Assembly (NCBI GenBank): GCA_031414955.1
Contig: JANOQV010000100.1
Coordinates: 1-37,420, forward strand
DNA length: 37,420 nt
Direction: 5' to 3'
DNA from: Pedosphaera sp.
GTDB lineage: Bacteria; Verrucomicrobiota; Verrucomicrobiia; Limisphaerales; SIBH01
The position numbers are program-made. Of this stretch, positions 24,001 through 30,000 are shown piece by piece. Positions within the stretch are counted from its first letter, which is position 1. Every line of letters starts with the position of its first letter.

Positions 24001-27000
24001 CCCATCGCCGCGCACGTCGGCACCACGCTGGAAGCGTTGCTCAAACGCCTTTATCGCAATCCAAAAACCGTCACGGCCTCCACCCTCAACACGGCCGCGA
24101 ACGCGCTGCGCCTGCTGGAAGTCCTGTGCCAGCCCGGCACCGAGGAGAAGCTGGCTGACCATGCGCCGGTGCGCATCCTCGTGGTGGACGACGAGCCGCT
24201 GGCCCGCCGCGCCGTGGTGGGCGCGCTGCAACTGGCCTTCAGGCAGCCCGAGAGCGCGGAGGACGGAACCCAAGCGGCGGTGCTGGTGGCGAAGACCCCG
24301 TACGATGTCATTTTCACCGACGCGCAGATGCCGGGGTTGGACGGATTTGAACTTTGCGGCACGATTCGCGAAAGCGCCTTGAACGCGCAAACACCGGTCG
24401 TCTTCATCACCGCCAACACGGATGTGGAAGCTCAGAGCAAGGCCACGGTCTGCGGCGGGAACGATTTCATCGGCAAGCCTTTCCTGCCCATCGAGATTAC
24501 GGTCAAGGCGCTGACTTTTGCCTGGGAAGGACGTTTGAAAAAACTGCTGCTTGCGCCGGAGCGAACTGAACCGGCCCCGGCCTTGATCGCCTCCTGATCA
24601 GGCCACGTGAGACTGGCGGCAAAACCATTCCGGTCGATCCGGAATTTTCAACCCGCCGCCGGTCGCTCACGCCGAGAATCGAAGTAGTTCCTGCGCCTTC
24701 CGCCCCGGCCACGCGCGGCGGGTTGAAAACCCGCGCACCGGGGCCAGGCCACGGGCCGGGCTGAGGTTTCACTTCGGAATCACTTCTTCAACAGCGCATA
24801 CTCCATCGAGTCCACCAGCGCCTGGAGACTGGCCTCGATGATGTTCTCGCTCACGCCCACCGTGCCCCACTCTCGCTTGCCGTCGGTGGACGTGATGAGC
24901 ACGCGGGTCTTGGCCGAAGTGCCGGTCGCGCCGTTGATGATGCGGACCTTGTAGTCGGTGAGTTCGATGGCCTTGAGCCTGGGGAAGAACTTGATCAGTG
25001 CGCGCCGCAACGCGCCATCAAGTGCGTTCACCGGACCGTCCCCTTCCGCTACGGTGTGCGCGGTCTCGCGGCCCACGCGCACCTTCACGGTCGCCTCGCA
25101 AACGGATTCCTTCGTGTCGCGCCGCATGGAGACGTGATAGGCGTCCACGGTGAAGAGCAGTTCCGGGTTGTGATCCATGATGCCGCGGATGAGCAGCGCG
25201 AGGGAAGCCTCAGCGGCTTCGTACTCGTGGCCCTGAGATTCGAGTTCCTTGACCCGGGCCGTAATCTCGCGGGTCTCCGGTGCATCAGGCGCCAGCTTGA
25301 ACCCCAGTTCGGCGGCCTTGAGCAGGATGTTGGTGCGGCCCGACATGTCGCTGACCAGGACGCGGCGGTGATTGCCGACCGACTCCGGACTCACATGTTC
25401 GTAGCTGCGCGAGACCCGCTCGATGGCGTGGACGTGCATGCCGCCCTTGTGGGCAAAGGCCGTCTGGCCCACCCAGGGCGCGCGCGGATCGTGACGGATG
25501 TTCGCCACCTCGTTCACGTATTCGGAAAGCTCCTTCAGCTTGGGCAGCGACTTGGGCGGCAGGCAGCGCAGCCCCATCTTCAATTGCAGGGTCGGCATGA
25601 CGCTGATCAGGTTGCAGTTGCCGGTGCGCTCGCCGATGCCGTTGATGGTGCCCTGCACCTGCGTCGCGCCGGCCTCAAGGCCGGCGATGGCGTTGGCCAC
25701 GCCGAAGCCGCAGTCATCATGGGTGTGGATGCCCACGCGGCAGTTCAACTTTGAGATGGCGAACTTGGTCGTCGCCGCGATCTCCCGCGGCAACCTTCCC
25801 CCGTTCGTGTCGCACAGGACGATGCAATCCGCGCCCGCCTTTTCCGCCGCCTGCCAGGTCGCGAGGGCGTATTCCGGCTCATCGGCAAAGCCGTCGAAGC
25901 TGTGCTCGGCATCGTAGAAGACAATCTTTCCGTGGTCCTTCAAGTAACGGATGGTGTCGCCGATCATGGCCAGGTTTTCGTCCGGCTTGGCCCGCAGCAC
26001 TTCTGTGACATGGAGCAGCCAGGTCTTGCCGACAATGGTGACGACGGGTGTCTTCGCTTCGAGGATGTTGTGCATCAACTCGTCGTTCTCGACGGCCAGG
26101 CCTTTGCGACGCGTCATGCTGAAGGCGGAGATTTGCGCGTTCTTCCACTTGCGTTTGGCCGCCTGCTTGAAGAACTCCATGTCCTTGGGATTGCTCCCCG
26201 GCCAGCCGCCCTCGATGTAGTGAATGCCGAAGGCGTCAATTTTCTCCGCAATGCGCAGTTTGTCCTGCGCGGAGAAGTTGATGCCTTCACCCTGCGCGCC
26301 GTCGCGCAGGGTCGTGTCATAGATTTCGACTGGTGGTTTCATTCGCTTGGCCCGCCGCAGCGGGAGCGAGATGTTTACGACAGGGTGAAAAATCATGCAA
26401 AGAGTAAAGGGGGGCGGCAGGGGTGCCGTGGTTCCTCCTGGCCCAACCCCTCCCGTTAGGCCGTGGTCCTGAGAGCCTGTCTGAAAAGTCACTGGTGCAG
26501 CGCAAGATGCCCGCCCCGGAGTGCGCCTGAGAAGGCGGGAAGACGGAGCGGTGAAAGTCCGCTCCTGTGCGGTGAAGAGCCGTGCAGTATCGAACCGGAA
26601 CTGCGTCGCCGTGAGGCGGGGTGGAGAGCACCGGAACGAGAACGACCAGTCCGTAACACAGACGGCCTGTGTGGGTCGTCGCCGTGAACTCGATGCGGTC
26701 GGTGTGGAGGGGCGAGCCTGCGAGTGACTGGCTTCGCCAGTCAGAGCGGGCGTAAATCCGCTGGCAGCCGGGCGATCCCTGGTCATTGCGCCGATGGTTG
26801 GAGATGGAATGGCCGGAAGTCCTCTTGAGATAATCAGGGAGACCCGTCCGTGCTGGAGGGTGCGTTGGGCCCACCGTCCGCGTGCCTGGCTGGCGGGAGT
26901 CAGAGCGTCCGTAGTAGCTGTGAAGCGGGTCACGACCGTGGAGCGAAGGGCACGCAGGAAGGTGGAGGTGCGCCGGACAGAAAAACGGACCAGAAAACCA

Positions 27001-30000
27001 ACGCGAGTGCCCGCGAGAGCTAGCCAGCGGTGGAATCAACCGGGTGCCATTGGCCTGGGTGATACCGAACGTCGGCCCGACGGACTTGGGGACGAGGCGA
27101 AGAGCCGCTCCCTCTCGCAGGAGAACCCACCGACTGGAAAGCCGGATGCGGGAGACACGCCTGTCCGGTTTGGAGGGAGGGGAGCGGCTACATCCGCTCT
27201 CCCTACCCCTATCGCCTCCGAATTTTTAGACAGGCTCTTAGCCGGGGGACAGGGGGCAAACGAATGGGGACAAGCGAATGAGATTTAGGATTTGTCTCAT
27301 TCGTTTGACCCCATTCGTTTGACCATCTCCGGTCAGAGTTCACGAGCGCAACTGGACTGCCGGGCCGAATCGAAGCACGCCTCCATCACCTGCTGGGTCT
27401 GCAACGCCATCTTCGGCCATTGTTCGTTCAGCGCACCTGAGCGCGCTTGTGCGGCGAAGTTGCGAAAGAGGTTCGTCTCCTGCGCGCTGGAATGACTGTT
27501 GCCGTGCTCCGGCACGGTGAAGCGCCGCCAGCCGGACTCCATGTTGAAGTCGCAGCCGCGCACATTGTGGACGGTGTTGTTCACCTCAAACGTCAGTTCG
27601 CGGCCATGAAACGGTGCGACGAAATCCGCGAGCCGCAGGTAGCCTTTGCTGCCGCTGACCGTCGCGCATTGTTCGTTGGCCGTGAGGAACGAGCAGTAGA
27701 ATCCCGACGACACGCCATTCTCCCAGACCAATTCGCCGGAGAACTCCGTCGGCACTGGAACTCCGCCATTCGCTGCTGCGACCTCCTGCAAGATTCGCCC
27801 CGTCACTCTCTGGGGCATCTGCCAGTTCATCACCCAGAGCGCGAACCGGATGTTGTACCAGCCCAGATCACCGAGGCAGCCGAAGCGTTCCATTTCACTG
27901 TTCGCCCGGATGTTGCCGGTGAAAAACTCCGGCGGCGCGCAGAAGCTGAAGGAGGAAGTGATGCGTTTGATCTCGCCGACGCGCGCGCCGTCCTCCAGCA
28001 CTTCACGCATCGCCGGCAGCCGCGTGCTGTGCATGAACATCACGCCGTCGAGGAACTGGACGCGGTTTTTCCGGCACGCCTCAAGCATCTCCCGCAGATC
28101 GGACCTGCTGTTCGCGCAGGGCTTCTCGCACACGATGTGTTTGCCGGCCGCGGCCGCGCGCAGCACCCACTCCTTGCGCAGCCCCGTGGGCAATGGGATG
28201 TAAACCGCGTCCACATCCTGCGCCGCCAGCAATTCCTCGTAGCTCCCGAGCGCGCGCGGCACAGCCTCCATCGGTTCGCCCGCCTGGCAATCGGCGATGA
28301 ACTGACGGGCCTTGGCGACATCACGACTGGCGACGGCGACCAGGGTGCCGTTGCCGGAGAGGCGGATGGCTTTCCAGTTTTTCCGCGCGATCTGGGCCGT
28401 GCTGAGAATGCCCCAGCGAAGTTTATTGGCTGACATGAGTGCGTGCCTTGTGCCGCAGGAAGCTTTCCAAGACAAGCGGCAAACGGGAGAAGGTGGGAAA
28501 GGCGACGCGTAGAGCGGGGATGGGGTGGCCGACGGGACTCGAACCCGCAACAGCCAGCTCCACAAGCTGGGACTCTACCATTGAGCTACGACCACCACCC
28601 CGGAACGCGGGCGAAAGTAGGTTTGCCGCTGCGGTGCGTCAAGCCTCCCGCACGCTCGGCGGGACGCTGGGAAGGGAAGGGCGCTCTTTCCTCCATCTTG
28701 CTTTCACCCTCCGCGCCTTTAGATTCCGCCCATGCAACTGCCCGATGCGGTTCCCATCATGACGCTGCCAAGCGCGACCCTGTTCCCGCAGGCGCTCCTG
28801 CCACTCTACATTTTCGAGCCGCGCTACCGGCGCATGCTAGCCGATGCCCTCAGTTCCAACCGCATGTTCTCCGTGGCCATGCAGAAGCCCGGCCGCTCGC
28901 GCGAAACACCTTGTCCCATCGCTGGACTCGGACTGATCCGCGTTTCCGTCGATCACAACGACGGCACCTCCCACCTTATCCTCCAGGGGTTGACCCGCGT
29001 GAAACTCGCCGAGACCGTGCAATACAAACCCTATCGCGTGCAGCGCATCCAACCCCTCGCCGCCGAGGCGAGCGACAACGTGACCGTGGATGCGCTCATC
29101 GCCAAGGTCCACGAACTGGTCGAGCAACGCCTCGAACTGGCTCCGTTCCCCTCGCCCTTCCCGGCCAAGAAAGGCGCGAAGGCCGGCTCGCCGGAGCCGG
29201 CCGTCTTCACCAAGACCGAAGTGCTCAACTATCTGGGCAAGCTGCCCAGCGCGGACCAGGTCGCCGACCTCGTGACCTGCGCGCTGCTCTCCGACGCGGG
29301 CGAGCGGCAGACGATTCTCGAAACCGTCCCGGTCGAGCCACGCCTCAAGCACCTCATTCATTTTCTGATGGCCGAGATCACCCGCCGCCAAAAAACTCCC
29401 AAGCCGTGAGGGCGACATTCTCCGCCGGCTTTCTTTGAACGCCGGCCGGGTTTCGCAGTCCATTGGCCGGACCCACGGGACGCCCCGGGATTCCAGGCAT
29501 GATTCGACTCGTCCTCTTCGACATCGACGGCACGCTCATTCACACGAGCGGGGCCGGAGAAAAGGCTTTTGCCCGCGCCTTCGCAAATCTGTTCGGCATT
29601 TTTGAAGGCACGGAGAAACTCAAATTCGCCGGCCGGACCGACGTGGCCATCCTGCGCGAGTTCTTCCTCCAGAACGCGATTGAGCCGTCGCCGGAGCGCA
29701 TCGGGCAGTTCCTCGACGCCTACGTGTTTCTGCTCGATCACATGTTGCAGCAACTGCCCGGCGGCGCGCACCCTGGAGTCTGGAACTGGCTGCGCGAACT
29801 GCGCACCCTGCCCCACGCGCCCATCCTCGGTTTGCTCACTGGCAACATCCGGCTCGGCGCGGAGATTAAACTGAGGCAGTTCAACCTCTGGCCCGAGTTT
29901 GCGACCGGAGCCTTCGCCGACGACTCGGCCGAGCGCAACGAAATCGCCGCCATCGCCAAGCGGCGCGGCGAGACGTTGCTGGGCCGTCCGTTGCGCGGCG

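Follow-up and report, generated by a model that had tools for sequence, protein, structure and literature searches.

An ORF-less group II intron standing in place of the REPIN core of an IS5-family MITE in Pedosphaera sp.

The window, which is the whole 37,420-nt stretch of contig JANOQV010000100.1 that was analysed, holds a group II intron inside a MITE, flanked by a citramalate synthase gene and by a gene which we take to encode a Gfo/Idh/MocA-like oxidoreductase. The survey's finding of an ORF-less group II intron in place of the MITE's core is borne out by an Rfam match, a six-domain fold and the lack of an RT ORF. The features and their positions are given in Table 1. Runs X2, X3 and X5 have holes in their contig cover at 26369-26435, from which no inference is drawn.

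Table 1. Features of the intron-bearing MITE copy and its neighbours, with positions counted along the window.
Feature	Position	Strand	Basis or remark
Citramalate synthase gene	24780..26342	-	TIGR00977, 702 bits; strand opposite intron
Left target triplet TGA	26470..26472	+	right triplet TTA, no match
Left terminal inverted repeat	26473..26487	+	IS5-family MITE
Left MITE arm, present 5' exon	26488..26520	+	ends in GGA (three surviving bases of left REP tag); no matching IBS1
Possible cryptic 5' splice site	26490..26499	+	CACTG (4/5 with EBS1), then GTGCA
ORF-less group II intron	26521..27212	+	692 nt
GTGCGCC	26521..26527	+	common to intron 5' end and start of lost core; proposed deletion microhomology
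Domain I	26526..26838	+	consensus fold with two-sided changes
EBS1	26722..26726	+	GAGTG in d3 loop, complement of CACTC
Domain II	26839..26901	+	consensus fold
Domain III	26905..26955	+	consensus fold
Domain IV	26957..27135	+	179 nt, without RT ORF, common to ORF-less subfamily; consensus fold
Domain V	27139..27171	+	AGC catalytic triad; Rfam match and consensus fold
Domain VI	27172..27210	+	predicted branch A at 27205
3' exon	27213..27222	+	final C of right REP tag and short right MITE arm
Right terminal inverted repeat	27223..27237	+	MITE
Oxidoreductase gene	27333..28433	-	below-cut-off matches to sugar dehydrogenase models; strand opposite intron

The assembly has 38 pairs of MITE ends, the number the survey had counted: 35 span 176-179 nt, and the remaining three measure 767 nt (the intron-bearing copy), 280 nt and 122 nt. 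The same ends also bound a 951-nt insertion sequence with an IS5 transposase (NF033580, 232 bits), both copies of which have TAA on both sides. Ends in common with an autonomous IS5 element and a 3-nt target duplication place the MITE in the IS5 family. Target triplets match in 19 of the 37 scorable MITE copies and differ in 18; in the intron-bearing copy they differ, and this mismatch (TGA/TTA) is compatible with a join of two MITE copies. Some other copies have collapsed or shortened cores, and another genome holds core-less minimal MITEs, 45-55 nt long, with the same ends. The sequence of the 3' exon follows GCACTC in intact copies, namely in 12 of the 25 others whose left arm is similar; the remainder are cut by contig ends, have other right arms or were missed by the pattern.

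The assembly is fragmented into 313 contigs, and of its 50 MITE ends without a partner most are close to the end of a contig, which would favour an assembly chimera at the repeat. This seems very unlikely, since an independently assembled contig covers 26193-26550 without a difference and reaches 30 nt into the intron (one nucleotide under the 31-nt rule, and in a run that could itself be the source sample), all four runs examined, from two studies, span the 3' junction, and the overlap is just 7-10 nt.

The core that this IS5-family MITE carries is a REPIN: a multi-copy REP doublet made of two inverted, tetranucleotide-tagged palindromes. The core REP occurs 143 times in the assembly, 39 of them away from MITE ends, and flanks a RAYT gene at either side (NF047646, 81.4 bits; cut-off 80). 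The missing core, which the survey had put at 108 nt, measures 104 nt (179 minus 49 minus 26); 108 nt is the full length of the GGAG..CTCC REPIN, and what survives of it is GGA and the final C. Core and intron do begin with the same seven bases, GTGCGCC, as had been noted; the bases bordering this motif differ in most copies, and two copies share 9 nt. Those seven bases are what favours the conjecture that the core is descended from the intron by shrinkage. BLASTN likeness ends after the first 7-9 nt, however, and the REP doublet occurs outside MITEs and around the RAYT gene and is therefore not a shrunken intron; we regard this origin as scarcely credible.

The Rfam model Intron_gpII (RF00029) matches at 27137-27212 with 47.1 bits (cut-off 40). 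The intron starts with GUGYG, ends with AY, and has the group II hallmarks of domains V-VI, an AGC triad and a bulged A (27205). Domains I-IV had been left unmodelled; a consensus fold over 20 rows now covers all six domains with 175 pairs, 89 of them showing two-sided change as counted with no shuffle control, and the intron keeps 161 of the 175. Domain IV matches ORF-bearing introns at the DNA level only at its two ends, which suggests by eye that it may be an ORF remnant. Among six ORF-less copies 1 of its 57 pairs covaries, which gives no support for a specific fold. A promoter scan returned 0 sigma-70-like sites, and a terminator scan returned one terminator-like site, at chance level, and none at the intron junction. 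The RNA runs contain 0.04-0.06 of the sequence words.

As the survey had stated, the intron is single-copy, being the only match in the assembly by BLASTN and by the Rfam model (150 of 392 candidates scored). The assembly also has no intron RT: RVT_1 and tblastn give just two RTs, one on contig C8 adjoining an Avd gene (100.2 bits) and one on contig C267 without a GIIM domain. Because no RT of the intron lineage is present in the assembly, we infer that the RT for the ORF-less copy was supplied in trans. Full-length ORF-less relatives, which the survey had reported at 84-86% identity in three other families, were found by BLASTN at 86, 85, 84, 81 and 80% identity in four genomes from four other families. 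The ORF-less subfamily is spread over several host families, and a cognate RT was not found in 6 of its 8 host assemblies (this one included), all 8 of which are incomplete. In ORF-bearing relatives the RT consists of RVT_1 and GIIM only, without an endonuclease domain.

With the present 5' exon, CCGGA, EBS1 forms 1 of 5 pairs, whereas with CACTC, the end of the lost core, it forms 5 of 5. Among 71 other insertions, which are related and not independent, 57 pair at 5/5, 11 at 4/5 and 3 at 3/5, with none lower, and the copy studied here is the one insertion without an IBS1 among the 72 scored. Over the 34 different EBS1/IBS1 combinations the mean is 4.21 Watson-Crick pairs; shuffling gives 2.53 +/- 0.17, and 0 of 10,000 shuffles attain the observed mean. 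Across these insertions EBS1 and the REP tag (CTC|C, CTA|C) covary. In 54 of 71 insertions the 5' exon closes with CTC or CTA, and the first base of the 3' exon is C in 36 of 41. A hairpin of at least 6 pairs ending at most 7 nt from the site precedes 64 of 80 related 5' exons, compared with 10.5% of 1271 control windows. EBS1 was read from alignment columns, and exons had to provide at least 5 bases for the pairing count and 45 for the hairpin count. The counts leave out 11 loci duplicating others, 8 entries that belong to another class or whose start is uncertain (L075 included), an intron with an insertion in its EBS1 loop (L100), the intron studied here, and rows without the EBS1 region. 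Five copies of one related intron have in common only a flank made of a hairpin-like arm and CGCTA|C.

The survey had placed the intron just after a small GC hairpin which it described as intact. That hairpin is mismatched, since sister copies read GCAAGCTGC and the intron-bearing copy reads GCAAGATGC, and it does not pass the hairpin test above. To judge from EBS1 (1/5 against 5/5), the hairpin that mattered for the insertion is the deleted REP. A class C-style insertion at GGA|C, after the small hairpin and into a MITE copy that was core-less or lost its core exactly, would draw on the core-less minimal MITEs of the other genome and on the weak hairpin ending 8-10 nt upstream. It would also make the identical 7-mer a coincidence and leave EBS1 pairing below the range of 3-5 seen in the relatives, and no core-less GGA|C copy is present among the MITE end pairs of the assembly, so we consider it highly improbable. 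L075, an intron whose native site is CGGA|, carries a different EBS1, TCCGT.

The earlier state predicted by an insertion next to the REP was found in one other genome (G097), where three intron 5' ends, 87% identical to the one studied here, follow GCACTC; in two of the three a clear REP of the core family precedes it. These three are the only close relatives among 28 hits in the order, one of which is a copy on contig C89 of the same assembly. The C89 copy joins a REP, the intron's first 10 nt and a MITE end, as would be expected of the opposite deletion. Among 46 metagenome hits, 12 show a core-family REP before an intron-type start, in more distant relatives; 33 of the other 34 match by chance, having neither REP nor intron, and the last has 11 upstream bases only. 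A MITE copy with both core and intron was not found in the assembly or elsewhere.

Three mobile elements are nested at this site. The fit of EBS1 to the lost core end, the covariation, and the earlier state seen in G097 and the metagenomes together lead us to conclude, with considerable confidence, that homing brought the intron to the foot of the MITE's REPIN, and that the 104-nt core hairpin was lost between GTGCGCC repeats. The target pattern and the covariation suggest that the endonuclease-less lineage would reverse-splice at the base of a DNA hairpin, its 5-nt EBS1 reading the end of the REP arm and the REP tag in reversed form (CTC|C or CTA|C). The ORF-less copy, moved by the trans-supplied RT, would have inserted at CACTC|C, where the REPIN of the MITE has its 3' foot. 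This would have set the intron's GTGCGCC just outside the long hairpin, whose opposite foot opens with an identical 7-mer. The core may then have been deleted by slippage between the two repeats or by a template jump from one to the other, either after or during integration, the two being indistinguishable, which would have produced the appearance of an exact replacement. Slippage between short direct repeats, promoted by a hairpin, is established (PMC4134008).

A rearrangement in place of a local deletion is an alternative: homing at CACTC|C would have taken place in one MITE copy, and the present left half would come from another, joined at GTGCGCC by recombination that involves two loci. 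The mismatched triplets fit this history, and since mismatches are found in 18 of the 37 copies, hybrid copies look common. It remains unlikely in our view: the left and right arms are paired as they are in intact copies, and a 7-9 nt cross-over with a hairpin between the repeats needs no second locus. The genes on either side of the MITE match on different contigs or far apart, and never adjacent, in 11 genomes of the same genus, so synteny gave no information on the history of the MITE.

Following homing and hairpin loss, the copy has kept its ribozyme fold and lost both IBS1 and the target hairpin. It is therefore probably stranded, and splicing at the normal 5' site is predicted to be poor. 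Of 151 positions scanned, 12 pair at 4/5 or better with EBS1, and the candidate cryptic site in Table 1 is the only one with a GUGYG-like start after it. The copy would be a one-off accident, yet a clean natural record of an insertion followed by a hairpin deletion.

Taking the relatives together, we lean towards a broader reading. The introns may form a class-level lineage, sister to class C and present in at least five phyla, which homes to REP/REPIN sequences by hairpin shape and by a 5-nt EBS1 retuned for each REP family. One ORF-less subfamily with a fixed 179-nt domain IV would move between host families on borrowed RT, and at least two invasions of REPIN-carrying IS5 MITEs in this assembly would have left two opposite deletion scars (on this contig and on C89). 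A 2015 review gives homing sites, terminators and attC as the target specificities of bacterial group II introns (PMC4424553), and REP homing, if true, would be a fourth. It would also explain the harmless spread of an unclassified clade in the REP-rich Verrucomicrobiota, Acidobacteriota and Planctomycetota, and join two fields, those of REPIN/RAYT populations and of retro-homing ribozymes. No description of REP homing by these introns was found in the papers searched, and the extracts of PMC8643678 (EBS2a) and PMC2936281 hold nothing on it. EBS1 variants that in nature follow the tag offer a ready means of testing targeting by a hairpin plus 5 nt, as well as a ribozyme that is compact and can be retargeted. 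The ORF-less subfamily speaks for a higher frequency of non-autonomous mobile introns in bacteria than surveys based on RTs indicate.

The survey's suggestion of a class C-type placement stands in that the lineage lands after GC hairpins as class C does; the lineage itself is sister to the sampled class C and not inside it. In the RT tree its 27 rows form a clade of their own (100/100), sister (99/99) to a group of six rows that includes the class C references, which are few in this tree; the g2 and g3 references are from class F. A first RT tree, without true class C references and rooted on the long DGR branch, was not used for placement. Assigning the lineage to class F, or the Paenibacillus hits to class C, was rejected by the RT tree and the domain V sequences. 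A CGC triad and a shortened domain V are typical of IIC. CGC is found in three class C rows from Polaromonas and Sinorhizobium and in L196, in contrast to AGC in the intron and the rows of its clade; the class C-group reference L239 also has AGC.

By comparison with class C as described in PMC4424553, the lineage is alike in its RT without endonuclease, its insertion just 3' of a DNA hairpin, its short EBS1 and the lack of a common IBS2 among copies. Insertion 3' of a stem-loop without a fixed IBS2 holds for the lineage, and not for the present flank of 26521. It is unlike class C in its 5-nt EBS1, its domain I of about 310 nt and its target, a reversed GGAG/GTAG REP tag and not a terminator or attC; its 5' flanks end in CTC or CTA and not in U-tracts, while for attC no search was made. 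Miura et al. 2022 (PMC8919778) list the pBN3 intron, which falls inside the lineage clade, as Unclassified, and place C, g6, U1 and U2 introns near each other, often after predicted terminators. The extracts of that paper do not give a REP target, EBS1 covariation or an ORF-less subfamily for its Unclassified (U1-U3)/g6 group. Class F introns such as Ni.ha.I1, B.th.I3 and Ge.ur.I1 (g2-g5, IIF; PMC3552965, PMC4244168, PMC3753933) resemble the lineage in the AGC triad, seen in the first two, in lacking an endonuclease and in being 450-700 nt long without an ORF. They differ in their EBS2-IBS2 pairing, and the g2 and g3 references fall outside the lineage clade.

The 2015 review (PMC4424553) describes ORF-less bacterial group II introns such as C.te.I1 as rare and as occurring almost always together with a related intron that has an RT; an RT acting in trans is the usual explanation. 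The subfamily here likewise has no RT ORF, and unlike those cases it is a single one found across host families, mostly with no cognate RT found in the incomplete assemblies. Like REPIN/RAYT systems (PMC3337134, PMC3733652), the MITE core consists of inverted tagged palindromes, its REP brackets a RAYT gene, and one MITE copy is a collapsed single palindrome of the kind described for REPIN excision. Its tag is GGAG, a term absent from the text of PMC3733652, and unlike in those systems most copies lie inside an IS5-type MITE. Among nine P. putida group II introns, 2 have a REP association (table in PMC1525189). There is a parallel in targeting with the REP-targeting insertion sequences of the same paper (ISPpu9, ISPpu10, ISPa11, ISPsy8, ISRm19 and ISRm22), for which an abundant palindromic repeat is likewise a fixed landing site; those elements move by DNA transposases, whereas the intron is a retro-homing ribozyme.

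The ORF-less group II intron of the window matches Rfam Intron_gpII at 27137-27212 (47.1 bits). All six domains were recovered in a consensus fold of 20 related introns, made with domain IV removed, two rows shortened and no shuffle control; 89 of its 175 pairs show two-sided change, and 161 are retained in the window's copy. The survey's finding of a single-copy intron without an RT, nested in a MITE, held up. It is the only match in its genome (G000) by the Rfam model (150 of 392 candidates scored) and by BLASTN, and RT matches in G000 are limited to contigs C267 and C8, the latter adjoining a DGR Avd gene. 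An independently assembled contig, whose run may be the source sample, matches 26193-26550 without difference and so takes in the intron's first 30 nt; 4 of 4 runs compared, from two studies, span the 3' junction. Both neighbouring genes, a citramalate synthase and an oxidoreductase, are antisense to the intron. The interval that separates the MITE from the oxidoreductase gene contains a separate 71-nt imperfect palindrome (27254-27324), matching only itself in the BLASTN comparison. The two RT loci are DGR-type: the C8 RT (L003) is split over two overlapping frames, and upstream of the C267 RT (L002) is an ORF that ends in sequence similar to part of the RT 3' end, possibly variable and template repeats.

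Features of the intron in the window
Feature	Position	Strand	Detail
Group II intron, ORF-less	26521..27212	+	GTGCG at 5' end (26521), AT at 3' end (27212)
Domain I	26526-26838	+	consensus fold
EBS1 (GAGTG)	26722-26726	+	
Domain II	26839-26901	+	consensus fold
Domain III	26905-26955	+	consensus fold
Domain IV, no RT inside	26957-27135	+	consensus fold
Domain V, AGC triad	27139-27171	+	consensus fold
Domain VI, predicted branch A at 27205	27172-27210	+	

G000 has 38 MITE end pairs, 35 of them 176-179 nt long and the intron-bearing one 767 nt. A 951-nt element encoding an IS5 transposase (NF033580, 232 bits) has these ends too; it is present in two copies with TAA duplications in another genome, G160. 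The core of the MITE is two inverted GGAG-tagged palindromes, that is, a REPIN. Its REP occurs 143 times in G000, 39 of them away from MITE ends, and flanks a RAYT gene at C262 on both sides, a link established for the G000 REP only. The core had been reported as wholly absent beside an intact GC hairpin; in fact 104 nt are gone, the left tag keeps its GGA and the right tag its final C, and the small hairpin has a mismatch against sister copies. The suggestion that the core is a shrunken intron was dropped, because the likeness stops after the first 7-9 nt. Collapsed or shortened cores occur in other G000 MITE copies, for which REPIN excision offers a comparison (PMC3337134).

Several related repeats were seen. 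The same REPIN sits within a second frame with other conserved ends (C23, C58, C71, C123, C152 and others), likely a second MITE family, and carriage of REPINs in IS-derived MITEs may be general in G000. The MITE end motif is present in 73 of 201 genomes, and in five genomes MITEs with the same IS5-type ends enclose unrelated cores of 45-291 nt, many of them palindromic (L257-L265; G102, G169, G019, G159, G193). At C260:6956 a left arm ends at the core hairpin foot, followed by unrelated sequence. Several further Y1 transposase genes in G000 (Y1_Tnp loci L034, L042, L044, L045) have palindromes of their own on either side, tagged GGAG or GTAG.

Relatives of the intron point to how it selects its target. 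When 400 further genomes from the order were compared, 122 matched the intron at E<=0.001, and the RT of an ORF-bearing relative retrieved 77 loci, with Verrucomicrobiota, Acidobacteriota, Planctomycetota, Nitrospirota and Pseudomonadota among them. Across 71 other insertions, pairing between EBS1 and the final five bases of the exon reaches 5/5 positions in 57, 4/5 in 11 and 3/5 in 3, and the two covary (GAGCG with CGCTC, TAGGG with CCCTA, TAGTC with GACTA, GATGG with CCATC). The 34 distinct EBS1/IBS1 combinations average 4.21 Watson-Crick pairs versus 2.53 +/- 0.17 when shuffled (0 of 10,000 shuffles), a significance overstated since the rows are kin. In 64 of 80 exons a hairpin stops no more than 7 nt from the insertion site, versus 10.5% of 1271 controls, which leaves 16 relatives without one under this rule. 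The 5' exon ends in CTC or CTA at 54 of 71 insertions and the next base is C at 36 of 41; reverse-complementing CTC^C and CTA^C (^, insertion point) gives the REP tags GGAG and GTAG. Five copies of an intron from a single genome have nothing in common but a hairpin-like arm and CGCTA^C; a fixed IBS2 is therefore absent.

The pattern varies within the lineage. At L075 the native site is TCGGA^A, with the same CGGA that precedes the window's intron, and EBS1 is TCCGT, not GAGTG, placing the target on the opposite side of the tag pattern. A betaproteobacterial sub-clade targets a different hairpin; its members (L105, L109, L114, L115, L140, L141, L195) begin with GTACG and insert downstream of one conserved short hairpin plus TTAGT, the pBN3 member sitting among tyrosine recombinase genes. 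One Acidobacteriota record carries an intron in tandem copies, each preceded by its own REP-like hairpin (L089, L091).

The window's copy departs from its own target: EBS1 pairs at 1/5 positions with the present exon, CCGGA, whereas all 5/5 would pair with CACTC, in which the missing core ended. The 3' exon is the sequence that follows GCACTC in intact MITE copies. The survey had described an exact replacement of the core. It is instead very probably an insertion at the REPIN foot, then hairpin loss. The intron would have inserted at CACTC^C, which would put GTGCGCC at both feet of the long hairpin, the geometry of slippage deletion, where a hairpin lies between direct repeats (PMC4134008). 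Deleting what stands between these 7-nt repeats yields the sequence now seen, as would a template jump in the course of integration. The predicted junctions, a REP of this family followed by an intron, were looked for and found. In genome G097 three intron 5' ends, 87% identical to the window's, follow GCACTC, which for two of them is preceded by a clear member of this REP family; two ORF-less-type 3' ends are present as well (90-92%). Among 46 metagenome matches 12 have the same REP before the junction, 11 of them long enough to show a related intron start.

A second insertion may have left a trace. At C89:44872-45048 (L325) a REP is followed by the intron's first 10 nt and then the MITE end, in 1 of 11 copies of that right-arm class. 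This is probably the scar of a since-deleted intron, which would have been lost between two CGCCTGA repeats; two point changes would be the alternative to the probable intron deletion. The mismatched 3-nt target triplets of the intron-bearing copy, found likewise in 18 of 37 MITE copies, count against a simple history. In 11 genomes of the same genus the two neighbouring genes lay far apart or on separate contigs. Matching 3-nt duplications are limited to 19 of 37 G000 copies, and subfamilies have exchanged arms and cores, by inter-copy recombination or assembly mis-joins.

G000 has about 170 empty palindrome-plus-CTCC sites, which means that the intron is not currently spreading there. The genome also has 241 hairpin-plus-CGCTCC sites that would suit the lineage. 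Judged from its sequence, the window's copy, which has no IBS1, is expected to be spliced inefficiently at the normal 5' site. Speculatively, a 4/5 site followed by GTGCA, 26 nt upstream, is a candidate cryptic 5' splice site; in Ge.ur.I1-1 alternative sites serve in splicing (PMC3753933).

On domains I-III the window's intron groups in a single clade (96/99) with five full ORF-less relatives, which come from four other host families, and all have a common domain IV. The ORF was therefore lost a single time, and the short form stayed mobile afterwards. Among seven further genomes carrying close ORF-less copies or pieces, two have a cognate RT (G075 and G128, 75-81% identity); the search found nothing above 40% in G003, G004, G094, G097 and G143. 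All seven assemblies are fragmented and tend to break at multi-copy introns, so the ORF-less introns of these five may not be orphans. In G075 ORF-less and ORF-bearing introns occupy the same repeat family with near-identical flanks, as trans-mobilisation would predict.

The lasting interest is the lineage itself, a sister of class C that homes to hairpins, is tuned to REP tags and has a mobile ORF-less form. REP-homing group II introns were not found described in the open-access literature on introns and repeats, the scope of the search. The nearest precedent is one table row, in which 2 of 9 P. putida group II introns are REP-associated (PMC1525189). The survey had taken the placement after a GC hairpin as typical of class C. 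The hairpin-homing is indeed like that of class C; the lineage lies beside that class, not inside it. On a 49-row RT tree with references from C, D, E, g1, g2 and g3, its 27 rows form one clade (100/100), sister (99/99) to the group that contains class C and separate from the other five. Domain V carries AGC, versus CGC in most class C rows of the tree. In Miura 2022 (PMC8919778) the pBN3 intron, a lineage member, is 'Unclassified', and C, g6, U1 and U2 are neighbours, often found after predicted terminators. The lineage works like class C, yet departs from it on three class C tests.
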